Positions 11,257 through 33,021 of a DNA stretch of 64,000 nt are shown piece after piece. The notes under the pieces were generated by a model that ran no database searches, was not told where the DNA came from, and was given only the letters and a program-made list of their open reading frames with translations. This DNA is from Nitrospirota bacterium (GTDB lineage Bacteria; Nitrospirota; UBA9217): contig CAVVUN010000002.1 in the NCBI GenBank assembly GCA_963751455.1, positions 352,001-416,000 of the forward strand, written 5' to 3'. The position numbers and the translations under genes are program-made. Numbering within the stretch: the first letter of the stretch is position 1; each line of letters opens with the position of its first letter.

Positions 11257-11730
11257 TTACGGCTTATAGCACCAATGAAGATTACAATCGCTCCCACCCC
11301 AGTAAATCCTCACGACCTTTTCGTTAAAGCCGTCTGGGCAAGCAGCAGTATCGCCTTTATAGGGATTTGTTGTGTCTCCGTCGCAGCCATAACCTGTAAA
11401 ATACATTCCGCCAAAGCCATAGGTCGCACCGCTGATTGTTCCGCTGATGTTTGCGTTTCCCACCACAGCCAAATTCGTTTGTGAGCTATTCGTACCAACG
11501 CTAAGTTTACCGTTAACAGTACTGTTGCCGGTTACAGTCTCGCCGTTACTGGTAACTGTGCCGTTGACCTTTAAATTGCCATTGATCTCCGCTCTAGGCG
11601 TGGGGGCAGTACCCGTACCAACTCCGAAATTGCCGTATACAATCAAATCGCCGGGTGCCGCATAAATATTTTCCGTGGTAAGAACCAAAACCGCTAAAAC
11701 GACCATAACCATTAAGACGCTAATCTTCAT
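11257..11730 (-). CDS. Small secreted protein with a beta-helix-like stalk and a Cys-containing tip domain
   Basis: GGAGG RBS and signal peptide, NG-x-V repeats, and the C-terminal FGGMY..C..NPY.G..ACPDGF..C..WCY. Confidence 0.75.
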   Translation of the reverse strand: MKISVLMVMVVLAVLVLTTENIYAAPGDLIVYGNFGVGTGTAPTPRAEINGNLKVNGTVTSNGETVTGNSTVNGKLSVGTNSSQTNLAVVGNANISGTISGATYGFGGMYFTGYGCDGDTTNPYKGDTAACPDGFNEKVVRIYWGGSDCNLHWCYKP

Positions 11731-11808
11731 TGTTCCCTCCTTTTAGAGATTATCCATAAAGTGAGCTGCTGAATTGAAAAATAATTTGCGTTGCCCCGCC
11801 TGCTTTTG

Positions 11809-14064
11809 CTACCGAGCAACTGCCGTGGCGACGGCAGAGCCAGTGGACTCATTTCCTACCGAATCAACGGCGGATACAACATAGTAATACACTGTGCCTG
11901 CAGTAAGCCCGGAATGCGCGTAGTTCGTAACATTGCCAAATGGTATCTTTGTGCCGGTCAAGGGCGAGACATTTGACTGCGTTGACCAATAGAGATTGTA
12001 ATATGAAGCGCCCATAGAGGCTGTCCACGTCACGTTTATCATAGCTGAACCGACAGTTCCCGCCGTTGCAGCTAAACCGGACGGAGCTAAAATCGTTTCT
12101 CCTGCTGAAACAAGCGACTGAACGGGAATACTGCTGTCGGCCGTGCTGTTGTTCCCAAGTTCGCCTGAGTAATTATATCCCCACGCCCAGACCGTGCTGT
12201 CATTTCTGAGCGCTACGGTGTGAAGATGTCCCGCTGCTATTGCCGTTATGCCGGTAAGGTAGGTGCCGCAAGCGCCCGGTGAGGCACCGGCGCTGGCGCA
12301 GACCTTAACGGGAATAGTGCTATCGGTCGTGCTATTGTTCCCAAGCTGGCCAAAGCAGTTAGATCCCCACGCCCAGACCGTGCCGTCGTTCATAAGAGCC
12401 AGAGTGCGGTACAATCTCCCTGCTATTGCCGTTATGCCGGTAAGGTAGGTGCTGCAGGCTCCCGCTGATGCGCCTGCAGTTGCGCAGACCTGAACGGGAA
12501 TAGTGCTAAGAGCCGTGCTATTGTTTCCGAGTTCGCCATTATCATTATCTCCCCACGCCCAGACTGTCCCGTCATTCCTGAGCGCGATGGTGTAGAAATC
12601 TCCGGCTGCCAATGCGGTTATGCCCGTAAGGTACGTGCCGCAGGCGCCCGCTGATGCGCCTGCAGTGGCGCAGACCTGAACGGGAATACCGCTGTCAGTG
12701 GTCGTGCCGTTTCCCAGCTGCCCGTAGTTGTTGTATCCCCATGCCCAGACCGTGCCGTCATCTTTGAGCCCTACGGTGTGACCATATCCCCCAGCTATTG
12801 CCGTTATACCCGTAAGATACGTGCCGCAGGCGCCCGCCGATGCGCCGGCAGTCGCGCAGACCTGAATGGGAATAGCGCTGTTGGCCGTGGTATTGTTCCC
12901 AAGCTGACCATTGTAGTTTCCTCCCCAAGCCCAGAGTGTGCCGTCATTTTTGAGCGCGACAGTATGAAAATTTCCCCCTATTGCCGTTATGCCTGTAAGA
13001 TACGTGCCGCAGACGCCCGGTGAGTCGCCGGCAGTGGCGCAGGCCTGAACGGGAATAGTGCTGTCGTTCGTGCTGTTGTTCCCAAGCTCGCCACCTGAGT
13101 TATATCCCCACGACCAAACCGTGCCGTCATTCTTGAGTGCAACGGTCTGAAGAGCTTCCCCTGATATTGCCGTTATGCCGGTAAGATACGTGCCGCAGGC
13201 GCCCGCCGAGGCGCCGGCAGTGGCGCAGACCTGAACGGGAATAGTGCTATCGGACATACTGTTGTTCCCAAGCTGGCCAATCGAGTTAAATCCCCACATC
13301 CAGACCGCGCTGTCATTCTTGAGCGCGACAGTATAACCAGATCCCCCTGCTATTGCCATTACCACTCCAGGAGTGGCAGAAACGATGCTTGACTCCACAC
13401 TTTCCCCATAAGCGTTCACTGCTGTTACAACGTAGTAATATGTTGTTTTATTGGTAAGGCCTGTCTGCGTGTAGGGGCTTGTCGCGTTCACGATTTTCGT
13501 TCCGGTTGACTTTGTGACAGTGGACTTTGTTGACCAGTAGATGTTGTACGACGTCGCGCCCGTAACAGTGTTCCAGCTTATGATGTTCTGTCCATTGCCG
13601 GCTAATACGGTAAGACCGATCGGGGCAGATGGAAACACTTCTGCTGTTGCGGGCGTTGCGCTCACCTCACTCGACTCTTCGCTCTCCCCATTGCTATTCT
13701 CTGCCGTTACCACATAATAGAAAGTCGTATCGTTTGACAGGCCGGCATGGATGTATGGACTTGTTATATTGGAAATCGTTGTCCCTGCCGTATTTGTAAC
13801 ACCTGATGTTGTTGACCAGTAGATATTGTACGACGTTGCGGCGGTAACACTGTTCCAGCTTATGATATTCTGTTCATTACCCGCGGCTGCGATAACGCCG
13901 GTCGGAGCAGATGGAAGCGTTGTTCCTGAAGACGTTCCGCTGCTATGTCTCCCGCCCTTGCAAGCCGACAACAGCGCCAGGAATAAAACAGCACCAAGAA
14001 GCAGTTTGTAAGAGGCTTTCCCTGTGCATATCACAACGAACCTCCTTCTTATCACATGCACCAT
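11809..14064 (-). CDS. Lipoprotein with FN3 domains and an RCC1/BLIP-II beta-propeller
   Basis: Lipobox LSAC, two N-terminal FN3 domains and one C-terminal FN3 domain (YNIYW..YYYVVTA), and seven GTVWAWG.N..GQLG repeats. Confidence 0.9.
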   Translation of the reverse strand: MVHVIRRRFVVICTGKASYKLLLGAVLFLALLSACKGGRHSSGTSSGTTLPSAPTGVIAAAGNEQNIISWNSVTAATSYNIYWSTTSGVTNTAGTTISNITSPYIHAGLSNDTTFYYVVTAENSNGESEESSEVSATPATAEVFPSAPIGLTVLAGNGQNIISWNTVTGATSYNIYWSTKSTVTKSTGTKIVNATSPYTQTGLTNKTTYYYVVTAVNAYGESVESSIVSATPGVVMAIAGGSGYTVALKNDSAVWMWGFNSIGQLGNNSMSDSTIPVQVCATAGASAGACGTYLTGITAISGEALQTVALKNDGTVWSWGYNSGGELGNNSTNDSTIPVQACATAGDSPGVCGTYLTGITAIGGNFHTVALKNDGTLWAWGGNYNGQLGNNTTANSAIPIQVCATAGASAGACGTYLTGITAIAGGYGHTVGLKDDGTVWAWGYNNYGQLGNGTTTDSGIPVQVCATAGASAGACGTYLTGITALAAGDFYTIALRNDGTVWAWGDNDNGELGNNSTALSTIPVQVCATAGASAGACSTYLTGITAIAGRLYRTLALMNDGTVWAWGSNCFGQLGNNSTTDSTIPVKVCASAGASPGACGTYLTGITAIAAGHLHTVALRNDSTVWAWGYNYSGELGNNSTADSSIPVQSLVSAGETILAPSGLAATAGTVGSAMINVTWTASMGASYYNLYWSTQSNVSPLTGTKIPFGNVTNYAHSGLTAGTVYYYVVSAVDSVGNESTGSAVATAVAR
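12115..13350 (-). repeat. About 190-nt intragenic tandem repeats (seven RCC1 blades)
   Basis: A near-identical 63-64-aa unit containing VCATAGASAGACGTYLTGITAIA is visible at DNA level. Confidence 0.9.
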
Positions 14065-14232
14065 CTCTCGCTTAAGGTCCCTATATATCTATCTTGCACT
14101 TTCTTCTTGTGCGAGGTTCATCTGTTGTAATGCTGCCAAGCGCTGAACGCGTGCAATAAGTTCCTTGAAGACGCAGAGCGATAACGAAATCCCTATACGT
14201 TCATTGTGCAATTTTCTCACCGTTGCCGAAAA

Positions 14233-15213
14233 TTAGAAACGCGCAGCCAGAGTGAAGTTAAATGAGTTTGCGTCTCCAAAACCGAGGTTATTATCGGTCA
14301 GATGGAAACGGCCATAAGCACCGGTCAGAGAAAGCCGGCGAGTAAAAAAATACTCGAAATTCGCCGAATAAGTTCTACCTCCCGGGATAGCTGAATAAGT
14401 TCTACCTCCCGGAATAGCTAGTGACTTGCTTGAACTGTTTTCAAATCCTATTCCCGCACTCATGCGTCGGGTCCAGTAATAAACAAGCGACACCGATTCA
14501 GTAGTGTTTATTGGTTGTGCACTATGTACTGATCTCGTCTGGTTGATTCTTGATTGGAAACTTACGCTCCTGTCGCGGTTCAGTTGACGCACGTATTTTG
14601 AAACAACGCCATAGCCAAGTGTTTCCGAATTTAGAAAAAACATATCTGGATTGACATTAATCATATTTATCGCTTCTGCGTAATTATAGGCAATCTCGAT
14701 ACCTACTAGTAAGGAATTCGTAAGATAATTTCCGATGCTTATTCCTGACTTATACTCCCTAGTTTCCCCCTGGCCAGAGTCATAGAAACGAAGTCTAGAC
14801 TTGTCAAACGATATTGCAATGGCAAGAGGGAACCCAGGCCTTGCATAATTAAGCACGAATTGTTGCTCCGGTCCGGTCCCATGCCGTATTCCAGATCTGA
14901 AGTCCATGTGCTGCCAACTAAAAAAAGCGCTGCCGATATGCTCAAGAAATGCAGCTTCTGCATAAGGATGGTCTACAGTGCTTACGGGAGCAAAGAATAT
15001 TTCTCCTGAAAATCCGTACGAAATCGTCCTGTTATCTGTCGGCTCTTCCGGCATCAAAGAAATGAACGTTGCCCTGCTATCCCGAGAGTCAATCCATTGG
15101 TAAATGGTTGATATCTGCGCCTGGTACTGGTCCTCACCAAATGCTACGTTGATACAAAGCACAAACGAAATCAATGCAACCATGCTGCTCTTTTTTTTCA
15201 TGCGCTTCTCCAT
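14233..15213 (-). CDS. Putative outer-membrane beta-barrel (porin-like)
   Basis: Signal peptide, amphipathic strands, PYAEAAFL motif and a C-terminal Phe (FTLAARF). Confidence 0.7.
   Translation of the reverse strand: MEKRMKKKSSMVALISFVLCINVAFGEDQYQAQISTIYQWIDSRDSRATFISLMPEEPTDNRTISYGFSGEIFFAPVSTVDHPYAEAAFLEHIGSAFFSWQHMDFRSGIRHGTGPEQQFVLNYARPGFPLAIAISFDKSRLRFYDSGQGETREYKSGISIGNYLTNSLLVGIEIAYNYAEAINMINVNPDMFFLNSETLGYGVVSKYVRQLNRDRSVSFQSRINQTRSVHSAQPINTTESVSLVYYWTRRMSAGIGFENSSSKSLAIPGGRTYSAIPGGRTYSANFEYFFTRRLSLTGAYGRFHLTDNNLGFGDANSFNFTLAARF
14366..14419. repeat. 27-bp in-frame tandem duplication (AIPGGRTYS twice)
   Basis: gaataagttctacctcccggRatagct occurs at 14366 and 14393. Confidence 0.9.
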
Positions 15214-15615: not shown

Positions 15616-16154
15616 TCATTCACGTCCAATCGCGTCGTTAAACACTATATCCTTTGCACCCCAATCAGAATGATATTTACCCTGCTTCACATATCTGTGA
15701 AAACTCGAATATCTCCATTTCAATGGCGCTGTCGTTAAACCATGTTTAACGGGATTGTAATGTATGTATTCGACATGCCGTATATAATCCATATCATCTT
15801 GTGTCTGATGCTCCCAAAACGTCGCTGCCAGATATATTGTTCACGTTTCGCTGTCCTGCTCGCGCGTTGCCTGCTTTCAAACGGATCATGACAGATCCTT
15901 GTAAAATTGCTCTTGATCAGCATCCACCGCTTTGAATATTCATTGTCGCCTGGAGGCAATGTCCAAAGGCAATGAAGGTGATCCGGCAGCAACACGATTG
16001 CATCCACAATCAACGGATACTTCGCTTTGACCGTCTCAAATGCCTGCCTCAGGAGCCTCGGATTCTCACCCAGGCACAATATCTTTTTCCGCTCATACGT
16101 TACGACCGTAAAGAAAAAAGTTGCTCCTGGTGTTTGCGAACGTCTATAGCGCAT
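15616..16154 (-). pseudogene. REP-associated tyrosine transposase (RAYT, IS200/TnpA Y1-like), frameshifted
   Basis: MRYRRSQTPGATFFFTVVT and the HUH motif LPDHLH. One T is missing at about 15816; restoring it gives WQRRFWEH..YIHYNPVKHG..W.YSSFHRY up to a stop at 15616. Confidence 0.9.
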
Positions 16155-16218: not shown

Positions 16219-16306
16219 TATTGCCATAACGACTCCAGGGAGTGGCAGAAATGATGCCTGTCCCCGAGCTCTCCCCATAAGCATTCACTGCTGTTACAAC
16301 GTGGTA
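16219..16306 (-). pseudogene. Fragment of an FN3-RCC1 paralog
   Basis: Diverged copy of 13351-13437 (YHVVTAVNAYGES..IISATP/GVVMAI) with a 1-nt indel. Confidence 0.8.
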
Positions 16307-16389: not shown

Positions 16390-16764
16390 TCAAGGTCCGA
16401 CCCCGCTCCCGCTTTTTTCCGCTTGCTTCTTGTTCTTACTGCCAACGAATGGAAGCCATGCATCTGTATTTCCAATCAGTATCATTTCGGGCTTTGTGCT
16501 TTTCTTCTTCGGCACGACTACTTCAACACCAATTGGAACACGTTTGAAATCCATCGCAATCCATTTGTAACTCTTTAAACCATTCTGACGGCTTTCAATT
16601 ATGGGAGCAGCAAATAATTTACTATCGATTCCATATTCAAAAAAATAATCTTGGTACATTTCATTTGCAATTTCGAACATCTCTTTATCTGAGCGATCAC
16701 TTTGAGTTGTGCAACCTGCAAGCAGAACAATTACTGCACTAATTTCAATAAGTTTATTCATCAT
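16390..16764 (-). CDS. Small lipoprotein, candidate toxin immunity protein
   Basis: Lipobox LAGC, AT-rich, and starts just after a toxin-like remnant. Confidence 0.65.
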   Translation of the reverse strand: MMNKLIEISAVIVLLAGCTTQSDRSDKEMFEIANEMYQDYFFEYGIDSKLFAAPIIESRQNGLKSYKWIAMDFKRVPIGVEVVVPKKKSTKPEMILIGNTDAWLPFVGSKNKKQAEKSGSGVGP

Positions 16765-17133: not shown

Positions 17134-17748
17134 TCAAGGTCTCTTCCCGGGAGTGAGAGTCCCTTCCTCACCCGAACCAATAAGATCCGCTGTTGGAATT
17201 AACCTGCAATTCTTTAGCTTATTCTTCTCAATAAACTCTTTCACTCTTTCTGTAACTATTATGAACTTCGGCAATGGCCATATAGTAAAAAAATCAGAGC
17301 CATCCCATTGCGATTCATCTACAAACAAACCTTTTCCAAAGTCTGTATATATTTTGTGACCGCATGCGGTGCACTCGTACTTTAACTTGATTTCTGATTT
17401 CGGATGTGCATTGCCGCCATTACCTATCACAATAAACTCCCACAACGGAGGCACCGCGTATTTGCTCCCTCTTCCAACCTTATCGACGCCAATAGGCTTC
17501 AGCGTGTAGCCGGTAAAACCTGCCTCTTCAAACAGTGTTGCCACTTCTTCCGTGATTATCCAATCACTCAGGAAAGTCGTTATAAAATGAGGTACCTTTG
17601 CAGACTTCAAGTCGATTTTTAAATCCCCGATTCTCGTGCCTGCACGCTGATGTCCTTTGTCGATAGGACATTTTATTCCTTCCCAGTCAGTTCCCTCAGC
17701 GAAATCTGCCCTACTATAATCTTTTATAGACAATTTATAAAAAATCAT
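17134..17748 (-). CDS. Immunity protein, SitI6/double-CXXCG- or Imm11-like
   Basis: CPIDKGH and CTACG motifs, and WDGSDFF..IIVTERVKEFI; lies directly downstream of the DUF2380-like toxin. Confidence 0.7.
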   Translation of the reverse strand: MIFYKLSIKDYSRADFAEGTDWEGIKCPIDKGHQRAGTRIGDLKIDLKSAKVPHFITTFLSDWIITEEVATLFEEAGFTGYTLKPIGVDKVGRGSKYAVPPLWEFIVIGNGGNAHPKSEIKLKYECTACGHKIYTDFGKGLFVDESQWDGSDFFTIWPLPKFIIVTERVKEFIEKNKLKNCRLIPTADLIGSGEEGTLTPGKRP

Positions 17749-17806: not shown

Positions 17807-19074
17807 CTATTTTAACCTTCGCCATGGTATGCCAAATTGTATCACCATTGTGTCAAGGTGTTCTAATATTTGTCTATCATTAGCAGTGGGGTTTTTCTCA
17901 AAAAACTGATACCAAGCTTTATTCCAGTTATTCTGCCCGGTGTGGATACCATATGGCTTAAAGATGTGAGCATCTGTTGCGAGGTTAACAGTGAATTCAT
18001 TTATGTTGAGACCTGCTTTTTCAAAATGTGGAGCAAGTGTTCTTGCCTGTGGTAAAAGATGGTGGACTTGATATCCCGGTATCCTTGCCATCTTCACCGG
18101 CATAAACATCAATGGCATTTCATAGAAAGAATGCGGTAACAGATAATTCGTAGTTTGAATGCCTAACCAATCAATACCAGCAGCTATGTAATTCCCAGCT
18201 TCCCAATTTTCGTCGCATCTACCCTTGATATAATCTCGAAATCCACTGAATAAGCCGCTTGACTCTCCTGTTATATCAGAATTATATCCTACTGTGCTGT
18301 TCCCCCATTCACTTCCCCAACTCAACGATGAATTGCCACTGTTTGAGTCATACGGCACAAAGCTACTTGATGAGTAGGGCGACGATAGCTGGTCATAATA
18401 ATTAAAATAACCATAATCCCTATTATAGGGGTCTGCATAAAAGGTAAGCGAGGTATCATATTCATCATACCCGCTGGGGTCAATATAGCGAAGCGGACTA
18501 TTCAAAACATAGCTGAACCGATTGAGCGCCTGTGGATTGGTAGGATCAGAGACTACTGGATTAGCGCTGATAAACCTTCCAATCGACGGATTATAGAACC
18601 GCGCATTGTAATTGTACAGCCCCGTCTCGGCATCAAACTCCTGTGAGGTGTACTTATGGTTCACGGACAGGAGTCCGTAATCGCTCAGTGTTTCTCCGAA
18701 AGGACGATAGCGGATGGTATACACTTTCTCCTTGGCGTAGCTTCCCGCCATGACCTCGAAATTCCCCATGGTCACGGTGCCCTGGCTGATTATGAGGCTG
18801 TTTACGAGCACGGAATTTTCGATCTGCTTCGTGTAGCCACAGTCGTATCCCCCCTTGATCGTTACGTTGACCGGGCGGTTGAGATTGAGTGGGATTGGCT
18901 CGGAGGTAAAGTTTACTGCGCGCGCCTGGATGATGTCGCCATTGACCGCTACATTATAGGCCACACGAAGCAACGAGTAATAATTATAGACCGATGTTCC
19001 GCGCAATATGCGGACAGGCGGTTTGGAACATGCGCTGTTCTGGATGGCCCCCGTCTGGGTCACGACCTGGGTGC
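17807..19074 (-). CDS. Orphan Rhs module: core fragment plus DUF2380/SitA6-like (HNH/AHH-type) toxin
   Basis: Repeats the main Rhs core up to DPSG. The C-terminal region has HHLLPQ..F..AGLNI..H..IH..WNKAW..F..NP.A. No convincing start or RBS. Confidence 0.85.
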
Positions 19075-20879
19075 GCCACCTTAATAGTTGCTATTCAATT
19101 TTCAAAGAACATCTGTGCACGATATCGTGGAAGTAACATTTGTGCCTATCGAATCCCAACCGCTTTGAGGAACTGGCCCATAATCAACTGAACTGCTAAA
19201 TAAACACATAGACATAAAAAGAAGCAATCATATATAACAATACTAAAACGCTGTTTATATTTCTCTGTTTCAAAGTTTCCATTTTATAATTCTCTTCGAT
19301 GATTTTGTATTTGTCGTGATAGACAAACGAAAAGTAAAGTATAATTGTGACCATGAATAACAGAAATAGCTGGACAACCTTGGGCAAGTGCTGAACATCA
19401 ACATTTATCAGACCTAGTTTTCGTAATAAAAGAACTATCGTAAGCACATTCAAAGACGCGAATATCGACACAATAAACATGGCCTTGTATTCAGGGACGT
19501 CTTCAGCTCCCCATTTTTTTAACTGCCACGTGTAAGTTCGGTAAAAAATATATTTATAAATATTCATCATATATCTCCTGGCACTCCCGGCATATTGTAT
19601 ATGACCGGAATGGGATACACTATTACAGGTGAAGGAGGACCTTCAAACCCACCCATCAAATCTGCGGCCCAGTAACCCACCCCGGCACCCACACCGAATG
19701 GCCCACCGATGAGTCCATAAAATCCAACACCCACATCCAGCGCTGATTTACTCGCTTTATCATAGTCACCCATTTGGTAAGCATTACGATACTGTCCGAC
19801 TGAGAGAAAAGTAGAAGACATAAAAGTCGCGTAGCCGCCCATCCTGAATAATTTTGCGTTTCTCAACGCAATAGAACGAGCGCTGGTCCATTGATTACCG
19901 CCCCAACGGTTAGAATACCATTTCGCGTTTATACCGCGCCAATAACCTTCAAATTCATTACTGTATTCGCCTGCCGCAGCCCCTGTACCTAATAGATTTA
20001 AAACACTCCCGGCAACGAAAGCAGTGTTATTATTCCACCGGCTTTCATTTTCATTACCAGTCGCGTCTGTGTTTGGCCAGGGTGTACTCGTATCATATCC
20101 GAAAGTGTAGGACGGCCAATTATTGCTTGCTAAGCTATGCAAGTCATACGGCACAGAGCTGTTTGATGAGTACGGAGAAGAGATCTGATCATAGTAATTG
20201 TAATAACCAGAACCACCCCAATCAGAATAGCCAATATTGTGCGAGTAAGCATAATAGGAGTCATATTCATCATACCCGCTGGGGTCAACATAGCGAAGCG
20301 GACTATTCAGGACATAGCTGTAACGGTTTAGCGCCTGAGGATTGGTAGGATCAGAGACTACCGGATTAGCGCTGATAAACCTTCCAATCGACGGATTATA
20401 GAGCCGGGCATTGTAGTTGTACAGCTCCGTATCGGCATCAAACTCCTGAGAGGTGTATTTATGGTTCACGGACAAGAGTCCGTAATCGCTCAGGGTTTCT
20501 CCAAAGGGACTGTAGCGGATGGTATACACTTTTTCCTTCGCATAGCTGCCCGCCATGACCTCGAAATTCCCCATTGTCACGGTGCCTTGACTGATTATAA
20601 GGCTGTTTACGAGCACGGAATTATCGATCTGCTGAGTGTAGCCGCAGTCGTATCCGCCCTTGATTGTTACGTTAACGGGGCGGTTAAGATTGAGGGGGAT
20701 TGGCTCGGACGTAAAGTTTACTGCACGGGCCTGGATGATGTCGCCATTGACCGCTACATTATAGGCCACACGAAGCAACGAGTAATAATTATAGACCGAT
20801 GTTCCGCGCAATATGCGGACAGGCGGCTTGGAACATGCGTTGTTCTGGATGGCTCCGGTCTGGGTCACAACCTGGGTGC
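18456..20879. repeat. 619-bp diverged direct repeat of the Rhs core (18456-19074 vs 20261-20879)
   Basis: Offset is 1805 nt at both ends, and the differences inspected are mostly synonymous. Confidence 0.95.
19196..19570 (-). CDS. Membrane immunity protein candidate for the main Rhs toxin
   Basis: About three hydrophobic helices, AT-rich, and the start overlaps the Rhs stop. Confidence 0.75.
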   Translation of the reverse strand: MMNIYKYIFYRTYTWQLKKWGAEDVPEYKAMFIVSIFASLNVLTIVLLLRKLGLINVDVQHLPKVVQLFLLFMVTIILYFSFVYHDKYKIIEENYKMETLKQRNINSVLVLLYMIASFYVYVFI

Positions 20880-23800: not shown

Positions 23801-25986
23801 GGCGTATAGCTAATTCCCACGCTACCACCGATACTATTGAAAATCTTTATGAGGAGATTGCTCGCTTGGTCCGGATTGTCCGGATTGTCTGCCGGCCCAA
23901 CAGCTGTCGCAACCACCGGAATTCCCTGTGACGAAAACAAGTATCGGCCGCTGAGGAAAACAACATCAGTTCTGCCGTCGCCATTGAAATCGCCGATATG
24001 ATACCGTTTGATATTGTCGTTGCCCCATGTCATTGTGCCCCACGGCGATGAAAAGGTTTTAAAATTGCAACCGGCAGAAAGAGCTACCGAGAGGTTTCCA
24101 GATTGATCTATGAAAAGAATATCGGTCATGCCGTTTCCATCATAATCAGCAAACTTATACCGAGTAATATCGCCATTGCCCATTGAAATGGAAGGCATCG
24201 CAGTGATAAAAGCAGAACCCGTAGAGAATTCCGTTTGTATATTGCCGTTAGAGTCAATATAGATAATATCCGCCTTGCGGTCTCCATTAATATCACCAAC
24301 AGCGTACTGAGCCGGAATATCTCCATGACCCGAAGTTGCCCAGGGGTTTGAACTAACAACAAAACCTATTTCTGAATATGTGGCAACTTGAAGATTCCCA
24401 TCGCTGCCAATATAAAGAACATCTGCCTTTCCATCACCATTGAAGTCCGCAACTCTATACCTCGCCTCTTCACTATTACCCAATTTTGACGCAAACGTAT
24501 CAGAAACAAAACCGGCTGTTGAAGATCCTGTAGACAAATAAACATTCAACGTACCAGTCTGTACAGATAAAATATCAGCCTTTCCATTTCCGTCAAAATC
24601 TGCAACAAAATTCTGTTCAGGATTATATGCATTCACTGTAAGCCATTGTTCAACTGATCCAAAATTGGCGCCCGTAGATAGTGCAACATCAAACACACGC
24701 ACACCACTTATATAATCACGGTAGGATAAAAAAATATCTGCTTTACCATCTCCATCAAAATCTGCTGGATAAATTATCGTGTTGTGGGTATCGCCGATCC
24801 TGCCCCAAAGAGTCGTTATAAAATCAGATCCGGTCGATGAACCAACCGTCGCATATTCATTTCCCTGTGAATTAAGATAATCAATCCTAAGAATATCGCT
24901 GCGTCCATTTCCGTCAAAATCACTAATCTTATAATGACGTGACTCGACAAGATGGCCGAGACTTGATTTCGTACTGACGATAAAACCGGTGCTCTCCGGT
25001 GAGTAATCCATAATTGTTTCAGGCAATGGGCTCGTGCCATCTTTGCCTAATTGCTGGATGCCTCTTAAAAGAGTCCGAAAAGTATTGGCACTCTCTCTAT
25101 AGTTAAATTTATACGATCGAACGAGATTATTATTGGCAGTTATATCTATCCGGTCAAGGCGATACACGGTCTTGACCCCAAAATTCGGCGTGTATATTGT
25201 CACAGCATCCTGGCGTGCGCCGTCATCTCTTACGAACGTTATTCTGTTACTCGACATAATCGACGTGCTAGGCCATGTATAGTCTATATGATCCAGATAA
25301 ATATGTCCTTGATCTTTAAAATAATAATATTTTATATAATTGCCATTCGCGTCCATTTCTTGATCAAGGCACCATTTGAATACTTTACTCGCGTCGGCCG
25401 CAATATTATGGGCCGGATCGTCCGGTTGATCCTGTCTTGACTCGGAACTCTGGCCGAAGAAATAATGCGTGCCTGACTTGTCAATGACTTCCCAGGACGT
25501 AGGTCTTCCTGTTGTACTGTCCGTGGAAACCTTAAATTTTAAAAAACCAGTTTCTATTGTAGCGCGGTATTCGCCGTTTCCGATATTCGTCAGTCCTATA
25601 GTGTTTCCACCGGTTTTGAAAACGTAGCTATTTTTATCATAATTAACGCCGTTCTTTGTGCTACGCTCTATGGAGTCCACTTCAAGCTGCCATCCTAATC
25701 CAAGCCAACTATTTGACTGGTTGTTTTTATAAGTCAGGGTAAGTTTCGGTTCCATTCCGTTGCGTCCTGTGGGGACAAGAATGGGCATCAAATGTTTCAT
25801 CGCTCCCGTAAATAGGTCGGGAGTTGCTCCATCAAATTCTGAGGATGCATTATTGTCTTCGATTATTGATGATTTAAAAGATAGAGATGAATTGTCGTCA
25901 GCATCTTCTTCTCCAAATGCTGGAAAACGGAAGACTGTAGATATGAGAAGGATAAATAGGGAGAAAAGACAAAGCAGCTTCTTCAT
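19567..25986 (-). CDS. Secreted SpvB/FG-GAP/YD-repeat Rhs polymorphic toxin
   Basis: Signal peptide, SpvB-like GRNGMEPKLTLTY..WLGLGW, several DFDGDGKAD repeats, REFRGF-like ERDFRGF, YD repeats, the core YHGDHLGS..YNYNARLYNP.IGRF..NSPLRYVDPSG, and a variable C-terminus. Confidence 0.93.
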   Translation of the reverse strand: MKKLLCLFSLFILLISTVFRFPAFGEEDADDNSSLSFKSSIIEDNNASSEFDGATPDLFTGAMKHLMPILVPTGRNGMEPKLTLTYKNNQSNSWLGLGWQLEVDSIERSTKNGVNYDKNSYVFKTGGNTIGLTNIGNGEYRATIETGFLKFKVSTDSTTGRPTSWEVIDKSGTHYFFGQSSESRQDQPDDPAHNIAADASKVFKWCLDQEMDANGNYIKYYYFKDQGHIYLDHIDYTWPSTSIMSSNRITFVRDDGARQDAVTIYTPNFGVKTVYRLDRIDITANNNLVRSYKFNYRESANTFRTLLRGIQQLGKDGTSPLPETIMDYSPESTGFIVSTKSSLGHLVESRHYKISDFDGNGRSDILRIDYLNSQGNEYATVGSSTGSDFITTLWGRIGDTHNTIIYPADFDGDGKADIFLSYRDYISGVRVFDVALSTGANFGSVEQWLTVNAYNPEQNFVADFDGNGKADILSVQTGTLNVYLSTGSSTAGFVSDTFASKLGNSEEARYRVADFNGDGKADVLYIGSDGNLQVATYSEIGFVVSSNPWATSGHGDIPAQYAVGDINGDRKADIIYIDSNGNIQTEFSTGSAFITAMPSISMGNGDITRYKFADYDGNGMTDILFIDQSGNLSVALSAGCNFKTFSSPWGTMTWGNDNIKRYHIGDFNGDGRTDVVFLSGRYLFSSQGIPVVATAVGPADNPDNPDQASNLLIKIFNSIGGSVGISYTPSTQYSNVQLPFSVQTVSSVIRDDGNGNLAETKYGYEGGYYHITERDFRGFNHVTVTGPADPYDERKITETWFHQGIEYYNVLTGLPCTPCSPEPGKPCACYPPVPDLKGKPYHTRVTDANGSIYSESAIIYHSFINANGGYFNAVDTTKTYICDGSTTTTCNDSTSGQNKKTNYSYDGYGNVTSEQEYNSANASAPYRTIARAFTTDSTENYIVGLPKYEKIYDSSGQLVSSTTYYYDDPSDCETRSMPAGYTNQIPTHGNVTTIVGWLNSKPTGATDPEINMSYDSDGYGNLVCTRDGNGKKSRIFYDTATNTYPIGKTNDKDQWTTIQYYGINASTDKGLYGQVASVIDPNLVATTTEYDALGRKTKVIDPYGIASSNGTVSYSYNSFGSVGQQHVTVTSTIDYSTGATIWKKVFFDGFGRTIKTLSQAPDNKVISTDRTYDARGAVYISSLPYFEGLASYPTQVLKYDAVGRVTQKTNSDGTIVKSCYLNGVTAWIDPDGNKKRETRDVFGRLIQVDEYNPGTAFTSCTTDQGAPYATTIYQYDVLGNLRYVTDAEGNQTEMRYDSLRRKYYMKDPDMGQWSYSFDANNNLTSQTDANANSLGTNPIYFHYDALNRLLWKEYPKNGPVNMTDVHYTYDVAPDDAATTYPVGRLSIMSDASGTTKYYYDMLGRTSQTTKSVVNVTPSYTFKTTYDALGRPASLTYPDNETVSYAYTAGVLSSVTGTAVNYAAYNGYNAIGQPGTITYGNGIITNYMYSTSNYDLQSIVTGTTNQTLINLAYDYYPGGNIKNIVDSVDYSMTQWFEYDGLGRIQHAQTPNAASFGGVSDLFYNYSQTGNISYKEGITYDHTDSTGLHPHAVKSNITTGMTYSYDLNGNLITESTGSTVYRSITYDYDNMPQSVTLNNATTSFVYDGAGTRVKKSTSSGENIYLGKLYECVLNTCAKAIFAGDTRIATKTGSDVLYYHGDHLGSTQVVTQTGAIQNNACSKPPVRILRGTSVYNYYSLLRVAYNVAVNGDIIQARAVNFTSEPIPLNLNRPVNVTIKGGYDCGYTQQIDNSVLVNSLIISQGTVTMGNFEVMAGSYAKEKVYTIRYSPFGETLSDYGLLSVNHKYTSQEFDADTELYNYNARLYNPSIGRFISANPVVSDPTNPQALNRYSYVLNSPLRYVDPSGYDEYDSYYAYSHNIGYSDWGGSGYYNYYDQISSPYSSNSSVPYDLHSLASNNWPSYTFGYDTSTPWPNTDATGNENESRWNNNTAFVAGSVLNLLGTGAAAGEYSNEFEGYWRGINAKWYSNRWGGNQWTSARSIALRNAKLFRMGGYATFMSSTFLSVGQYRNAYQMGDYDKASKSALDVGVGFYGLIGGPFGVGAGVGYWAADLMGGFEGPPSPVIVYPIPVIYNMPGVPGDI

Positions 25987-26102: not shown

Positions 26103-28499
26103 TTAATTATTTGACTCGTTACCATTCCTGTTCGTGCACTGGCTCCTGCCCGGCTGCAGGTCCCAGTACCCGAGGGAGTAATACTGTTCGTTGATATAGG
26201 ATGCAATTTCATTGGCCTTGGTGAAGTTGCCTTCGAGGAAGAGATCCAGAACAATGTGCAATGCCTCTCCCGGATTGGTGAATTCCGCGGTGTCTGCGGA
26301 GATAGAAGGGTCTGTTCCATCGCTTGTGTAAATCAGGCTGTTGGAATAACTGCTGTTATAGAAGACGTTGCTTTCTTGATAAGCATCGCTTGCGCTGCGT
26401 GAACCGTCGAGTTCAATGCCCACAGAAAACGTGCCGCCGGCGGCCGCTGTGAGGTCCGTAAAAAATCCGTTGCCAAGGCTGACATTGACGTTTGAATTCT
26501 GTGCGAGAAGCGTAGTGTCTGCATAGAGAGCGCCGCTGCCTGCGCCATCGAATATGGTCTGCGCAGAAGCGATTTGCGGATCGTCTTTCAGGGCGTGTAT
26601 CTTGATGAAGAAATCTCCAGTATCCGGGCTGCTGGAGCCCGAGTAGATCACGAGGTCGGCGCTTACGATTGCTGCACCTTGGGGTATCGATTGCAGGTTA
26701 AAGGTGTAAAAGGGGCGGGTTTCGATCAGTCCATGCATGTAATAATTATCCGTATTGCTTTGATAGGTATACTCGTATTTACTCGCATACGAGTATGAGG
26801 TTAAAAATTGATCATAATAGTCCTGCTGGTACTGAACTCCGTTCTCCTGTGTCTCATAGAAATCCCGGTACACGTATCCTCCGGTGGCGTTTATGGTGAC
26901 CGTTTTCCGGGCTCCATCGATTCCGAAATAGGTGAGGTTCAAGGAAGTCGTTATTGCCCCGCTCCCGATATTGCGCGCGAGAGCGCGGATCTGGCGAACT
27001 GCTGCCTGGGAATGTTTATACGAAGCCAGGTCGGTTCCCGTCATATCTTGTTGAACCATTACTGAAACGGGTAAATAAGTTGGACTTGGCTGATAAGTGG
27101 CACTATTTCCGGAAAGTTCGTATATAAGTGTGGGATTAAAAACGTAAACACCAGGTGACGTGTCGCACGATATCGTGATGGCGGCAACGACTGTGACGGT
27201 CCCGCCGGGTTGAACCGATGTGGACGCGGTCCACGGCGCTCCGTAGTTTCCTGCATCGGTAAATTCTCCGCTCCATCCTGCCGGGAGATTTGCTATTTTC
27301 AGTGAACCCGATTTTGTTATATATGCCGTGCTGCTGCCGGTGTTCATAAGCGTTATATAGGCGAGGAACGTGCCGCCGGGGAGCATAGATGTCGGATTAA
27401 CAACGGCGGACGTAATTTCGGCGGACAGCGGCGGGCTGAGCGCTCCTACCAGAAGCTGCGTTACAGCCTGACCAAGGGTGCCGGATATAGCGGAGATGTT
27501 CTGGCCGTCCATTGCATAGACTATGCCTGTCCCTTGCGCACCGATATTCTCCGGGGGTTCCCCGGTCCCGAAGAAAAGAGTGGTGCTGTTCGCAACCATC
27601 GACAAGACTGCGCCGGAACCTGAATCCGCCTGTTCCCACACGAGCGCCATCGCGCCGTTGTCCCATCGGTATAGCTGCTCTTTGTGTCGATTGTCGACCG
27701 TCGTTGCCATGCCGATATACAAGTTGTCACCGTATGTTTGCATTGACCGGATGGTCGAAAAGTCAATTCCCGAAGTTTGTTGAGTAAAATTGATCCCGTC
27801 AGTCATTTGATATATCGAACTATCGAAAGAACCTGCAAAAAGCTTGGTCTGAAATACTTCCATGGCTTGAATGCCGTTTCCGCTCGCGTAGCTCACTTGT
27901 TCAATTCCAGTCCCGTCAAAGCGGGCGATGAAGTCAGTATTTGAGTCGCCGATATAAAGGTAGTCGTTCCATGGATAAAGAGTTTTGAACCCCTGCCATC
28001 CTGATGAAAGTGAACTGGAATCCGCGACTTTGGTCCATTGCATGTCTCCGTCGAATCTGAAAAGCTGTCCGACACCCGCGTTAACGTTTCGAGCGGAGGC
28101 ATAGAGCTGTTCCTTGTATACGGCAAATTTTTCTACTTTAGCATCAAAAGGCGATGAAACGGGACTCCATGAAGTGCCCCCAGCATACCGGTAGATAATG
28201 GAAAGTCCGTCCCACGCATTCTGGGAGGCTGCGGCATAAAGCTGTCCTTGAAAGATTATGATGGCATCTACCGATACACCCAATTCGCCTGAGATAGCTT
28301 CCCATGCAGCCACGATGCTCTCGGCGTTTTCTTGATATCTGTATACTTTACCGGGCTTAGAGGTGGCGGCATAAAGACTGCTCTGCTGAGATGAGGAATC
28401 GCTGATCAGGGTCGGGGAAGAGGTTGTGCAGGAAAGGAGTCCGACAGAAATGAGCACAATGATGAACGTTGCGAGCAGTGTATATTTATTGGTGCGCAT
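26103..28499 (-). CDS. Large lipoprotein with a beta-propeller-like N-terminus and Ig-like domains
   Basis: Lipobox LLSC, repeated F/Y.G.LY.G blades, and FNLQSIPQGAAIVSADL (DNRLRE/CBM96-like, tentative). Lies directly upstream of Rhs. Confidence 0.75.
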   Translation of the reverse strand: MRTNKYTLLATFIIVLISVGLLSCTTSSPTLISDSSSQQSSLYAATSKPGKVYRYQENAESIVAAWEAISGELGVSVDAIIIFQGQLYAAASQNAWDGLSIIYRYAGGTSWSPVSSPFDAKVEKFAVYKEQLYASARNVNAGVGQLFRFDGDMQWTKVADSSSLSSGWQGFKTLYPWNDYLYIGDSNTDFIARFDGTGIEQVSYASGNGIQAMEVFQTKLFAGSFDSSIYQMTDGINFTQQTSGIDFSTIRSMQTYGDNLYIGMATTVDNRHKEQLYRWDNGAMALVWEQADSGSGAVLSMVANSTTLFFGTGEPPENIGAQGTGIVYAMDGQNISAISGTLGQAVTQLLVGALSPPLSAEITSAVVNPTSMLPGGTFLAYITLMNTGSSTAYITKSGSLKIANLPAGWSGEFTDAGNYGAPWTASTSVQPGGTVTVVAAITISCDTSPGVYVFNPTLIYELSGNSATYQPSPTYLPVSVMVQQDMTGTDLASYKHSQAAVRQIRALARNIGSGAITTSLNLTYFGIDGARKTVTINATGGYVYRDFYETQENGVQYQQDYYDQFLTSYSYASKYEYTYQSNTDNYYMHGLIETRPFYTFNLQSIPQGAAIVSADLVIYSGSSSPDTGDFFIKIHALKDDPQIASAQTIFDGAGSGALYADTTLLAQNSNVNVSLGNGFFTDLTAAAGGTFSVGIELDGSRSASDAYQESNVFYNSSYSNSLIYTSDGTDPSISADTAEFTNPGEALHIVLDLFLEGNFTKANEIASYINEQYYSLGYWDLQPGRSQCTNRNGNESNN

Positions 28500-29125: not shown

Positions 29126-30370
29126 GTGAAGCCGGAAGCCGAACCGAAGATTACGAAGACCATAAGTGCGGAAACGACAGTAACCCGGGAACAAGCCGAA
29201 AAGATATGGGAGTTTCTGAGGGCCAACGGCAAAGATCAGCGCGAAGAGATAATGGAGACTGTTCAGTTCCAGCTCTCGCAGTTTTTGAAATCGAATTCGG
29301 ATTGGGACTTTTCGGACGAAGCGCTGCTGCTCCTGTCAGACCTCCAGATAAGGCGGGGAGAACATAAAGCCGCAGTTATGACAATCCTCCAGCTTATTTA
29401 TGAATATCCTGACTCGAAGTCTGTTTTTCCGGCGAAGAGGACCCTTGCCGAACTGCTCGATAAAAAAATCGACAAAAAGGTGAAACAAGTGCTTTCCGAA
29501 GCTGCCAGGGGATCCGATGCCAGGGAAAAATCGGAAAGGCTTGCCCACTTGTTGAAGAAACTCTCGGAGCAGACCGGTGATTTGCTGTATGAACCCCTCG
29601 TGGCCGGATTCGACCTGTTCTTTAACCGGTTTCCTTCCTATTCCGGATCGGATGAGTTGAGCCTCTTATTCGGAGATCTTCTGACTAAAAAGGGCAAACA
29701 TCTCTCGGCCTTGACCTACTATCGAAAATTACTGGCGCTCTATCCTGAGAGCGATTTCAGGGCCAGGGCACAGCGATCCATCGGAGACCTTTTTGTCAAC
29801 CATCTGAAAGACGTGAACGAGGCCGTGAACGCGTACCAGGAAGTCATTAACCAGTATCCAAAATCCGAGGAAGCCGGCTATGCTTATGAGCAAACCGCCA
29901 GGCTCGAAGAACAGTTCAAGCATTACGATCTTTCAGTGGAACTGTACGATAAGATCATAGCGCTGTACCCTAATAAAGAAATAGCGATGAGGGCTTTCAA
30001 TAACGAAGCACGGATTTTAAGGGATCTCATGGACAGTTCCGCCGAGGCAATCAAAGCCTACGGTCGGCTTGCCGATATGTTCAAGGGATCCGAAGGGGCA
30101 GCGGAGGCGCTCAAGGCCGCGGCTGCGACAGCGAGGAAAAAGAAGGACTACGATACGGAAGTGTCCATGTACCAGCGCTTTGTCAAGGAATGTTCGACGA
30201 ACAAGGAAGCGCCGGAAGTCCTGTACCAGGCCGCGGAGGTTACCGAGGAGGATCTAGCGCGGCATGACAAGGCGGTGGAGCTGTACGGAGAAGTTGCGGA
30301 GAAATTTCCCGAAAGTAAGTCCGCCAAGAAGGCCAAAAGCCGGATAGAATCGCTTACCAAGAAAAAATGA
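29126..30370 (+). CDS. Tetratricopeptide repeat protein (5' end uncertain)
   Basis: Repeated A..Y..L..YP.S..A..A units. Confidence 0.85.
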   Translation: MKPEAEPKITKTISAETTVTREQAEKIWEFLRANGKDQREEIMETVQFQLSQFLKSNSDWDFSDEALLLLSDLQIRRGEHKAAVMTILQLIYEYPDSKSVFPAKRTLAELLDKKIDKKVKQVLSEAARGSDAREKSERLAHLLKKLSEQTGDLLYEPLVAGFDLFFNRFPSYSGSDELSLLFGDLLTKKGKHLSALTYYRKLLALYPESDFRARAQRSIGDLFVNHLKDVNEAVNAYQEVINQYPKSEEAGYAYEQTARLEEQFKHYDLSVELYDKIIALYPNKEIAMRAFNNEARILRDLMDSSAEAIKAYGRLADMFKGSEGAAEALKAAAATARKKKDYDTEVSMYQRFVKECSTNKEAPEVLYQAAEVTEEDLARHDKAVELYGEVAEKFPESKSAKKAKSRIESLTKKK

Positions 30371-30481: not shown

Positions 30482-31054
30482 CGTCATTTACGCCCAATAC
30501 ATGCCTTAAATTGCCTTGCTTCTCATCGCCTATCCACAGGTCCTCAACTTTAGCAAAATAGAATTAAATTAAAAGAATGCGACAAATAAATATAGAACTA
30601 AAGAAGACATACACAAAGGAGATTGCTCATACATATGTTTACACGTTTAGTAAGGGCATATGCGAATGCATGAAACTGAACATAATTTCAATGCAGCTAA
30701 CTGTTCATATATTAAAATTTATCTGGTAAAATTATCCTAATTTAGTTGACAAAGCGGATTTAAGAGGTACTGTTATATAAAGACTAAGTATTCTGCATTA
30801 AAGAATTACCTTCTAATTATTTAAGAATATAGTTCTAAATTCTTACAAATCAATGATCCTCCTGTTCTGGTCTTTCCCTGTTTTGAAGATTTATCTTCGC
30901 TTCATTGCTTAATGTGAAGCAGTAAAGTGAAAGAATGTGATTATCTTTACGATATATCTCCAGTTATAGCTTCGGATAGAAATAATCTGTGCAATCATTC
31001 CCGGCGGTAAGAGTCCATATTAAAGGCGATATAGAAATTTCTGCGGAGGACAAA

Positions 31055-31537
31055 GTGAAACATACGCAAAATATAAAAACGCTATTATTCGTCGTTGCTG
31101 CCGCGACACTAATCTCCTTTCCTTGCGTGATGGCATATGCTGCTGAGAATGTCCTTCACTTTTATGATCATCTAAATCGCCTGACAGAGTCTCGATATTC
31201 GGACGGGACGACAGTAACCTATGGTTATGATAAATTAGGTAATCGCATATCAAAGAAAAAATTATACAGCCCTCATGTACTAACGATTCAAAAAACAGGG
31301 TTGGGGACCGGTACAGTTTTAAGCAGCCCATCCCGAATAAATTGCGGACTGGACTGCTCAGATAAGTTTAGTGAAGGGACGGACATATCCCTCACTGCTA
31401 TACCTGATTCGGGATCTTCGTTTAGCCAATGGTCCGGCGGCGGATGCGGTGGAACAAATCCATGTCCGCTCACACTGACAGCGGATACGACAGTTACGGC
31501 TTTATTTTCCTGCCTGGTCCGCAGAATCTATGGATGA
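31055..31537 (+). CDS. Secreted YD-repeat plus divergent InlB B-repeat protein, probably 3'-truncated
   Basis: GGAGGA RBS, signal peptide, YDHLNRL..YGYDKLGNR, and GTGTV.S.P..INCG..C..LTA.PDSGS.F..WSGGGC. Confidence 0.75.
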   Translation: MKHTQNIKTLLFVVAAATLISFPCVMAYAAENVLHFYDHLNRLTESRYSDGTTVTYGYDKLGNRISKKKLYSPHVLTIQKTGLGTGTVLSSPSRINCGLDCSDKFSEGTDISLTAIPDSGSSFSQWSGGGCGGTNPCPLTLTADTTVTALFSCLVRRIYG

Positions 31538-31629
31538 GATAAGAGGATACATGCAATAAGGAGCAAAGCTTTCCAAATCAGTGTAGGATAATTTTCGCGA
31601 AGAGATCACCACACAGAGAAAGGAAAGCA

Positions 31630-31878
31630 ATGCTCATTAAGACGTTACTGAATCGGACAGAGAATGTCAAGCCGTTCATTTTTGGAGTAGCTCGGTTTGA
31701 GGTCGTAGAGGGGCATGACGCATTGGTTGTGGAGGTCGCGTTCCGGAAGAATTCGCGACCGCTCTGTCCCATTTGCGGGCTCAAGTGCACTGTGTATGAT
31801 ACCCAGCGGCCCCTCGAGGTAGCCTCAGGATCTTCCGGCGCTCTTCCGGTGCGCCGCGGCCGATCTGATAGGATTTGA
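31630..31878 (+). mobile_element. ISL3-family transposase N-terminal fragment
   Basis: MLIKTLLN..zinc-finger CPICG..YD, after which the frame degenerates. Confidence 0.65.
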
Positions 31879-31969
31879 GCCGACTCTTGAGGTGGCGCAG
31901 CGTCCCTGCAGTCGGTAGTTGTCGCGCGTTTCTGACTTTGCCTAATTTCAAAAAAGGAGGAAAACTCGG

Positions 31970-32305
31970 ATGTCGCTACACAATGTGCTGCTTATTATAG
32001 CGTTGCTTATGGTGCCTGCGGGTTGTTCATCTGCGCGAACAATCGGCCTTATGTCATTTGGTGATTTAGAAGGCAAGATGATCCCTGAAAAACCCCGGGG
32101 CGACATTAGAGTCGGAAAAAGTTGCGGTAGTGTTTATACACTTTCTGATGCTCTGCGGGATGCGGTCAAGGACACTTCATTTGATACAATCATCGATGCT
32201 GAAGTTATTCACGAAACTGGCGTATTCGTATTTAACAATTGCATCATCATAAAAGGCCTCGCGCTTAACAGCAAGGAAATCAAAAGGGAAGGAGATTTGA
32301 ATTGA
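31970..32305 (+). CDS. Small lipoprotein (TRL-like, tentative)
   Basis: AGGAGG RBS, lipobox PAGC, and G.SCG..DA..D.IIDAEV..NCIIIKG. Confidence 0.7.
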   Translation: MSLHNVLLIIALLMVPAGCSSARTIGLMSFGDLEGKMIPEKPRGDIRVGKSCGSVYTLSDALRDAVKDTSFDTIIDAEVIHETGVFVFNNCIIIKGLALNSKEIKREGDLN

Positions 32306-32306
32306 A

Positions 32307-32645
32307 ATGAAAAGAAACCGCTTACTGCTCATTCTTTTTCTGTTGATTGGCGGCTGCGTGGCCCCCGCCAAGCCTCCCCTTACCTATGTATCCTTGGAGC
32401 GGCCAAGGAATATAATAGTAACTGAAAAACGTGCAGATTTCAAAATCGAGAAGACCCGCTTTGGAATCTTGTATCGTGATCCAGTTCCTGTGACAACATA
32501 CTTAAGCCAAGCTCAGACCAGATTGGGATCCAAAGTTATGAGAAATGTTGATGCCCAATTTCAAGTCCCTTTTTGTCTTATATTATTTTGTTTTGGGACT
32601 GATAGCATCAGTCTAAGTGAAAAGGCAGTCGCATCATCGCAGTAG
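32307..32645 (+). CDS. Small lipoprotein, hypothetical
   Basis: Lipobox IGGC; tightly coupled to the previous gene. Confidence 0.65.
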   Translation: MKRNRLLLILFLLIGGCVAPAKPPLTYVSLERPRNIIVTEKRADFKIEKTRFGILYRDPVPVTTYLSQAQTRLGSKVMRNVDAQFQVPFCLILFCFGTDSISLSEKAVASSQ

Positions 32646-33021
32646 AAACCATCTTTCTTCAAATCGAGGAGATGTAAAGGGCATGTGCAGTCATGCGGTA
32701 TCCGGCGGCTTCGGCGCTGCATCAATGCTGAAAGGAGCGCCTGTTGTGGAGGCATTCGGAGTCTATAGCGCTCATCGGTCCGGCGGAAGCTATTTTACAA
32801 GTGTATTTCAAGGTGGTGTGAGCGGAGCAGCAGTCGCAGGGGCGTTTGGAGGAGTAAATACTTTGACGAAAGGTATGAATACTTTAATTCAGATTGGCAG
32901 TAAGAGATTTGCGGCAAATCCTATTCTGGTCATTTGTGTTTTATCCATGTCAATCAGTGTCATCCGTGGCAAAAAGCTTTCATGTTAGGTATATATCTCC
33001 AAAAGGTGAACAGCGGAACCA

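Follow-up and report, generated by a model that had tools for sequence, protein, structure and literature searches.

How Rhs/YD shells that carry a signal peptide reach a target cell without a type VI secretion system (T6SS) or a TcA component is an open question, and the available part of a study on bacterial teneurin-like proteins states delivery without obvious machinery as unexplained (PMC13018210). We addressed this question at one locus of a Nitrospirota bacterium, using a 64,000-nucleotide stretch of contig CAVVUN010000002.1 (hereafter, the window) in which a large Rhs toxin gene is surrounded by genes for lipoproteins, a porin-like protein, and a small secreted protein. A first-pass annotation had treated positions 11257-32988 as one island and proposed that some of its genes form a dedicated display or delivery system for the toxin. 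Our analysis draws attention to two small elements, a beta-helix stub inserted in the Rhs protein and a secreted fiber, whose pairing likely gives toxins a swappable homing device that needs no injection machine. The features that carry this argument are as follows:

19567..25986, minus strand: TcdB/TcaC-type Rhs toxin of 2139 amino acids (aa) with a signal peptide (Pfam, NCBIfam, AlphaFold2 [AF2] model)
20554..20832, minus strand: beta-helix stub within the Rhs protein (aa 1719-1811), defined by insertion versus relatives; predicted local distance difference test (pLDDT) 94
19196..19570, minus strand: three-helix membrane immunity protein, Bfi1-like (NF053699 E 2e-15, below cutoff; 3 hydrophobic segments)
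17807..19063, minus strand: orphan Rhs module composed of stub, Rhs core, and DUF2380/SitA6-like toxin tail (Pfam, NCBIfam)
18749..19024, minus strand: second copy of the beta-helix stub, within the orphan
11257..11730, minus strand: secreted fiber with signal peptide, beta-helix stalk, and Cys-rich tip
30989..31537, plus strand: YD-cap adaptor gene with signal, YD hairpin, and InlB-B repeat, truncated before the stub

The central Rhs protein belongs to the known TcdB/TcaC-type class of polymorphic toxins. Its N terminus contains a hydrophobic segment with the character of a signal peptide (Kyte-Doolittle 2.04), and family searches retrieved SpvB (PF03534, E 4e-22), FG-GAP (PF13517, E 5e-26), TcdB_midN (PF12256, E 2e-24), YD/RHS repeats, and an Rhs core. 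Signal peptide, SpvB with an integrin-like propeller, RHS repeats, core, variable tail, immunity gene, and orphan cassette are all present, as in other members of the class. An AF2 model of residues 1150-1905 (mean pLDDT 78) resembles TcdB2-TccC3 with a TM score of 0.60 to 0.64. The toxic tail of the main Rhs matched no family; the DUF2380/SitA6-like tail of the orphan, which shares 91% DNA identity with the main Rhs over 300 nucleotides (nt), scored above the Pfam cutoff. The Bfi1-like immunity protein reached 56.9 bits against NF053699 (cutoff, 100), and the presence of an immunity gene points to bacterial targets.

The first-pass annotation had recognized no PAAR, VgrG, TcA, or TpsB gene. 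For the first two, this statement extends to the complete genome (5.72 Mb, 100% complete, 5.4% contamination), in which PAAR, VgrG/GPD, and TssC gave no match while positive controls were detected; the genes expected of a T6SS-delivered Rhs (PAAR/VgrG plus T6SS genes) were thus not found. TcA (PF03538, PF18276) and TpsB/ShlB (PF03865) also gave no match in the genome, but their controls were equally silent, so the absence of these two is not demonstrated. Five secretins are encoded in the genome, and pseudopilin-like genes occur in 7/40 related Rhs loci. These 40 loci were fetched from 55 non-self matches to the N-terminal part of the Rhs in 401 genomes of the phylum; each spans up to 20 kb, with ∼7 kb read per side, and several are shortened by contig ends.

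The stub, which the first-pass annotation overlooked, comprises 93 aa (Rhs residues 1719-1811) inserted in a hairpin of the Rhs core after the motif HLGS. The hairpin loop has 23 residues in most relatives versus 123 in one relative (L037) that has the insert too. Searches of Pfam, NCBIfam, PHROGs, and PDB sequences returned nothing significant (best PDB-sequence E 0.04). The predicted fold (pLDDT 94) ends after about three coils. Its best VIA match is to residues 1-100 of a pectin methylesterase (1xg2_A; root mean square deviation 2.5 over 73 residues) with a Z of 6.3, a middling value below which many beta-helices rank, and Foldseek gave no match at E≤0.001. In the predicted structure, the stub appears to resemble the capping helix and first coils of a right-handed beta-helix; with only 93 residues, it is not the long solenoid with a substrate groove of pectin lyase-like proteins.

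When 1.84 billion representatives were searched with a profile, eight further 50%-identity clusters proved to carry the stub at this position of the Rhs, three of which are full length, with 40 to 48% identity and signal-like N termini. A profile of the junction retrieved 2,668 representatives at E≤0.001, some of which may match through the Rhs core only. This genome holds six copies of the stub, three of them at the extreme C terminus of secreted proteins. A frequent carrier is a protein with a signal peptide, a YD hairpin, and an Ig-like region, the family to which the window gene 30989-31537 belongs, and a stub ends such YD-cap proteins at many loci (L041, L057, L077, L100, L102, L106, L119, L126-L128, and L133). 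Stubs were also found at the C terminus of RHS-repeat proteins (L101 and L109) and at the end of subtilases and Lcl proteins. The window YD-cap protein is 58% identical over 146 aa to that of L053, which runs on into a partial stub; the window gene stops ahead of the stub, and no stub remnant was found behind its stop. Two of these loci (L109:8810-17505 and L101:438-6434) contain a naturally split Rhs, the shell of which ends just ahead of the core and runs into Ig domains and two stubs. The core-plus-tail genes of L109 bear their own signal peptides.

The fiber gene encodes a mature protein of 133 aa (nt 11260-11658) that begins with A-P-G-D-L-I-V-Y-G (nt ∼11632-11658), the putative docking strand. 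Related fibers span 116 to 670 aa and share the motif (A-x-)G-D-L-x-V-x-G, of which the G, D, V, and G are invariant in 31/31 aligned members, these having been selected by the GDxxVxG motif. Family members carry S74 chaperones, tail collar domains, or F5/8 domains, and their tips vary widely. The family profile matches the Bdellovibrio mosaic adhesive trimer (MAT) fiber Bd2133 (8ond; E 1.9e-9), and the window fiber matches a PHROG tail fiber at E 9e-4. An atlas lead to PilV (0.80) fell below the reliability mark and was rejected. Variant fibers that start with A-D-K-L lie directly behind stub genes at two loci (L152:4196-5038 and L153:2409-3332) and were missed by the GDL profile. Two fiber-like genes in contractile-injection-like clusters (L136:8305-10755 and L138:1460-2743) have the GDL motif in their interior, a hint that the stalks may be of common origin.

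Complex prediction with three mature window fibers and the window stub gave a score of 0.87 (runs of 0.87, 0.87, and 0.88), against 0.00 for the best of three controls. The mark applied is reached by 116/157 solved pairs versus 2/215 mismatched pairs, a calibration that is rough here, as we used our own alignments and a trimer. Contact agreement between runs was at least 94%, and the pLDDT of the partners was at least 94. The predicted interface joins residues 1-9 of each fiber chain to residues 74-93 of the stub, its last coil, with one fiber chain per short stub strand (78-80, 84-87, and 90-92). Because each chain pairs its first strand with one strand of the stub, a monomer is predicted to cap a triple beta-helix. 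Fiber stalks have solved sequence relatives while the stub has none; thus, part of the confidence may stem from known folds. We regard binding between the stub and the fiber as quite probable.

Genomic linkage of the stub and fiber genes recurs across phyla. Among the 401 phylum genomes, for which only 13 to 16 candidates per genome were scored, 34 contained a stub and 24 a fiber start. Counted by genome, 12 had both, 5 the fiber only, 15 the stub only, and 362 neither; this count omits the present genome and six seed genomes, and kin within it are not independent. The 22 non-seed fiber starts lay within 60 bp of a stub in 11 cases, within 3.5 kb in 16, and within 11 kb in 17. The remaining five comprised one outer-membrane-protein-like sequence lacking the motif (L115), one that was not inspected, one with a weak stub-like neighbor (E 4e-4), and two located upstream of large secreted proteins, where no stub was detected. 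A GTDB-wide scan gave 22 loci, of which 4 had already been seen, 2 were internal matches in unrelated fibers, and 3 lay at contig starts. A stub gene adjoined the fiber gene in 12/13 of the others, and an Rhs match occurred within 9 kb in 8/13 (including two loci of one genome). The taxa represented include Nitrospirota, Syntrophaceae, Smithellaceae, Desulfarculales, and Omnitrophota.

All three fiber loci of the present genome have a stub nearby (3/3). The most complete module of this genome is L077 (C15:1230224-1246136), where we observed a papain-domain Rhs, an immunity gene, a lipoprotein gene, an intact YD-cap-stub gene, and three successive fiber genes, two of them with S74. The nearest analogue of the window is L100, in which an Rhs precedes an immunity gene 64% identical to the CXXCG protein 17134-17748, a YD-cap-RCC1-stub protein, and then a fiber. 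In G011, the sole stub match lies inside an Rhs and the sole fiber match 1.7 kb downstream.

Other arrangements were observed as well. On contig C9 (L078:4345-13292), a fiber gene split by an insertion sequence lies ahead of a gene whose product has a stub at its N terminus and RCC1; two genes for secreted proteins come next and may constitute a further toxin system. L105/L157 and L110 are arranged similarly, but no stub was detected there. At L059:4926-6765, L069:13347-14384, and L105 (from 11012 onward), fiber or Rhs genes adjoin secreted proteins starting with T-W-x-G...N-W, again with no stub detected; these proteins are possibly an alternative docking partner.

We propose that the Rhs and the fiber would be exported by Sec and fold in the periplasm, where the fiber would trimerize and be clamped through its N-terminal face by the stub. 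Shell and fiber would leave as one particle across the outer membrane, probably via a type II-like secretin, as the secretins and pseudopilin-like genes suggest. The variable fiber tip would then bind a surface receptor of a competitor and so choose the target cell, after which the shell would release its packaged tail, the Bfi1-like membrane protein serving as immunity. The stub may reach a shell in three ways, by insertion, by C-terminal fusion, or through a YD-cap adaptor. Where it is built into the Rhs, as in the window, the YD-cap gene would be redundant and could decay. We consider it reasonably probable that an Rhs shell with an inserted stub and a docked fiber forms a fiber-guided secreted toxin particle. 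The chances are about even that this extends to an injection-free targeting system for Rhs and other large toxins in Nitrospirota, Desulfobacterota, and Omnitrophota, with the stub as a universal socket for interchangeable fiber trimers.

Several observations weigh against the fiber-guided particle. In the AF2 model, the stub linkers and the core have pLDDT values of <50 and the stub is not reliably placed, so outward exposure of its last coil within the full shell is putative. The proposed mechanism extends to release of the tail and stops short of its entry into the target cell. Usable context was available for one other inserted-stub Rhs only (that of G011); at a second (L141), no fiber was seen in a sequence that ends 1.5 kb downstream. 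Fiber genes occur in only 6/40 related Rhs loci, a lower bound given that ∼7 kb was read per side and the window fiber lies 7.8 kb from its Rhs, and two Rhs paralogues on contig C15 have neither stub nor fiber. Stubs without a neighboring fiber were found at 10 metagenome loci and at 3/5 inspected genome stub loci (the other 2/5 have an A-D-K-L variant fiber directly downstream), 3/5 stub-rich genomes gave no fiber match, and many stub-fiber pairs adjoin secreted proteins other than Rhs. The window copy itself deviates at conserved positions. The first Asp of the autoprotease motif, a position that we take to be catalytic in Rhs autoprocessing, is Asn in both the Rhs and the orphan, while it is Asp in 37/39 matched cores and is kept in all eight other inserted-stub clusters; the window Rhs accordingly lacks the two-Asp motif of autoprocessing Rhs toxins. 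The window stub has Asn at a position that is Gly in 31/32 sequences. These substitutions mean that the window Rhs may be inactive or may not cleave itself.

An alternative that we regard as unlikely, though less so than those discussed below, is that the stub-fiber pair binds but serves as a general folding, co-export, or display device rather than in victim selection. The stub could template fiber trimerization or carry the fiber through the secretin, or the fiber could tether cargo to the surface or matrix of the producer. Consistent with such a role, many secreted proteins other than Rhs have the pair beside them, the pair in some cases occurs by itself, stubs end subtilases and Lcl proteins, and most related Rhs loci are without the pair. 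Against this role, the fiber tips vary widely and bear phage receptor-binding features. Many fibers also own an S74 chaperone, which makes an external template less needed, and neither partner in the window is lipid anchored.

The remaining alternatives depend on the layout of the window. Every gene listed by the first-pass annotation is present in the orientation given, but its propeller assignment for 26103-28499 came from inspection by eye (no family matched), and a transposase and an FN3 remnant had been missed along with the 93-aa insert. The neighboring features are as follows:

11056..11095, plus strand: 3' end of hrpB, left copy of a ∼40-bp repeat
11809..14064, minus strand: FN3-FN3-RCC1-FN3 lipoprotein without a stub (Pfam)
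14233..15213, minus strand: porin-like beta-barrel, a passenger (Porin_7 E 3e-4, below cutoff)
∼15616..16151, minus strand: REP-associated tyrosine transposase, frameshifted (NF047646, 123.5 bits, cutoff 80; reading frame splits)
16239-16306: FN3 remnant, 85% identical to 13370-13437, in frame with the broken transposase open reading frame (ORF)
16390..16764, minus strand: small lipoprotein, probable orphan immunity gene judging from position and low GC; no family match
17134..17748, minus strand: immunity-like double-CXXCG protein, for the orphan toxin (TIGR02264, SitI6-like, weak at E 0.02)
26103..28499, minus strand: propeller-like, Ig-like, DNRLRE/CBM96-like lipoprotein, adjoining 3/3 Rhs paralogues of the genome
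28870..28909, plus strand: degenerate hrpB-end repeat on the right side (80% over 40 bp, E 0.002)
29126..30370, plus strand: TPR protein with an apparently frameshifted start, judged to be outside the system

The hrpB-end repeat of ∼40 bp has four copies in the genome, two in the window and two on contig C15, each flanking an Rhs-plus-propeller cassette. Because the window copies bracket the minus-strand run, this run is likely a 17.8-kb inserted cassette; GC over most of it is 0.40 to 0.50 (higher in the RCC1 gene), versus 0.51 to 0.57 leftward. The TPR, YD, and small lipoprotein genes lie outside the repeats, and the region is therefore not the single island first described. The second cassette (C15:1093045-1111256; L082 and beyond) has hrpB-end repeats on both sides and comes after a copy of window positions 28423-28800 with 94% identity, which suggests either a tandem array at hrpB that was later split or an assembly or strain artifact.

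The state of this cassette raises the alternative that the module is real in relatives while the window copy is a decaying cassette that yields no working particle, which we consider improbable. This copy does show decay, in that both cores have Asn in place of the conserved Asp and the YD-cap is truncated, to which the Asn for Gly in the stub, the frameshifts in the transposase and TPR genes, and the FN3 remnant can be added. Set against these, the Rhs, immunity, and fiber ORFs are full length, the window pair passes the complex test, and an orphan with the same stub is retained, as expected for tail swapping.

Still less probable, and very doubtful in our estimation, is that the entire 11257-32988 block, including porin, TPR, and propeller, is a single secretion or display machine. 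Co-orientation is in its favor, as is the propeller lipoprotein gene, which adjoins all three intact Rhs paralogues of this genome. Two of the three propeller copies are 95% identical over 3.6 kb, however, and the three thus share one recent history. Full-length homologues of this lipoprotein elsewhere numbered two among 7,993 candidates scored; the 40 relative genomes contained none (one weak partial match), and a JGI metagenome scan retrieved no homologue. A lead to CBM96 scored 0.89. The lipoprotein was rejected as a conserved Rhs partner, since it flanks Rhs in this genome only and at 0/40 other loci, and its sequence distribution fits that of a lineage-specific Rhs companion. Porin and TPR were likewise rejected as parts of the system, which largely refutes the single-machine explanation for these two. 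The porin-like protein has three paralogues elsewhere in the genome, with no Rhs beside the two loci inspected. The repeats leave the TPR gene outside the cassette, and 63 family genomes gave a single TPR homologue, which has housekeeping genes for neighbors on a contig of 3.4 kb. The window TPR ORF has no in-frame signal peptide; a signal-peptide-like stretch lies upstream in another frame (28950-29126), reflecting a frameshift or a sequencing error.

The neighborhood comparison proposed with the first-pass annotation supports part of its delivery hypothesis. By tblastn, one of the 40 related Rhs loci contained RCC1, and none (0/40) contained the porin, TPR, propeller, or small lipoproteins. 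The fiber (its tip protein), the YD-cap gene type, and RCC1 as recurring cargo are what survives of the proposed display system, and these are tied to the Rhs through the stub domain. In L100, L056, and L078, a YD-cap and/or stub protein carries a fused RCC1, and the FN3-RCC1 lipoprotein is a possible accessory adhesin. That all neighbors are unrelated passengers at an integration hotspot has a near-negligible probability, for although the cassette is repeat bounded and contains a transposase and gene remnants, stub and fiber genes lie side by side at varied chromosomal positions in several phyla, and conserved residues make up the predicted interface.

Outside the cassette, an 82-aa ORF with CxxC (31630-31878) lies directly behind the truncated YD-cap gene; its identification as an ISL3 remnant, suggested by a motif, was rejected, as no Pfam, NCBIfam, or plasmid match was obtained. 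A Gly-rich ORF (32617-32988) is identical at 13 positions of a 20-aa stretch to an orphan-like ORF that lies downstream from the L038 Rhs and is probably a toxin-tail remnant. At 59429-60683, a GSDH dehydrogenase gene is broken into two overlapping ORFs.

The fiber-guided particle makes the question tractable through two proteins, by way of a socket of 93 aa and a fiber strand of 9 residues, both small and nontoxic. If correct, it would give a function to a widespread domain that has no Pfam model and would define a new monomer-to-trimer beta-helix junction, with a parallel to the anchor of Bdellovibrio MAT fibers. The predicted docking geometry is reminiscent of PAAR on VgrG. PAAR proteins cap the triple beta-helix of VgrG/gp5 as a three-stranded monomer and link a toxin to the helix. 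The stub shares no homology with PAAR; it is a truncated right-handed beta-helix that would bind the N-terminal end of a fiber without a contractile machine. Our literature search found no account of the stub, its Rhs insertion, or the fiber pairing; subscription papers and supplements lay outside its scope and may bear on novelty. We therefore regard these three as new, while the toxin class, MAT-like fibers, and toxin particles with separate binding subunits (PMC11062931, in its available part) are already known.

As described in the accessible portion of Zhang et al. 2012 (PMC3482391), TcdB/TcaC-export toxins resemble the window system in signal peptide, SpvB, integrin-like propeller, RHS, variable tail, immunity, and orphan cassette. 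That portion does not mention an inserted stub, an adaptor of the YD-cap kind, or a secreted fiber encoded by a gene of its own; its Table 1 lists "tail-fiber" among the repeats of the class, which may mean fused fiber repeats. The BC shell of Tc toxins and the bacterial teneurin-like proteins also package a toxic tail in a YD shell, as far as the consulted part of PMC13018210 describes them. In contrast to Tc toxins, the window system has an immunity gene that points to bacterial targets; no TcA match was found in this genome, with the controls silent as well.

Bdellovibrio MAT fibers, as covered in the sections available of PMC10769870, are similarly secreted, trimeric, and phage-fiber-like, with S74 and non-S74 forms and variable tips, and share a V-G-x-x-x-x-P-x-x-x-L loop motif with our family. 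The window fiber has the signal peptide and trimeric beta-helix stalk motif of a MAT and appears to lack the ∼130-aa beta-rich domain behind the signal peptide, its 133 mature residues starting at the GDL strand. By the same sections, MATs have ∼1,000 aa, an N-terminal domain of ∼130 aa, and a surface partner yet to be identified, whereas family fibers begin at GDxxVxG and have in the toxin-linked stub a candidate partner.

General Pfam and NCBIfam scans, which included no search aimed at them, gave none of the ALF-repeat, UmbA, or UmbB families of Streptomyces umbrella toxins. As presented in the part of PMC11062931 at hand, these are, like our model, secreted repeat-containing polymorphic toxins that scaffold separately encoded, diversified binding subunits. 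The umbrella toxins are actinobacterial and consist of a ring with five lectin spokes, while the particle proposed here would combine a diderm Rhs shell with a triple beta-helix fiber, the parts being unrelated. If the model is correct, the stub and fiber would assemble fiber-guided toxin particles analogous to the umbrella toxins.

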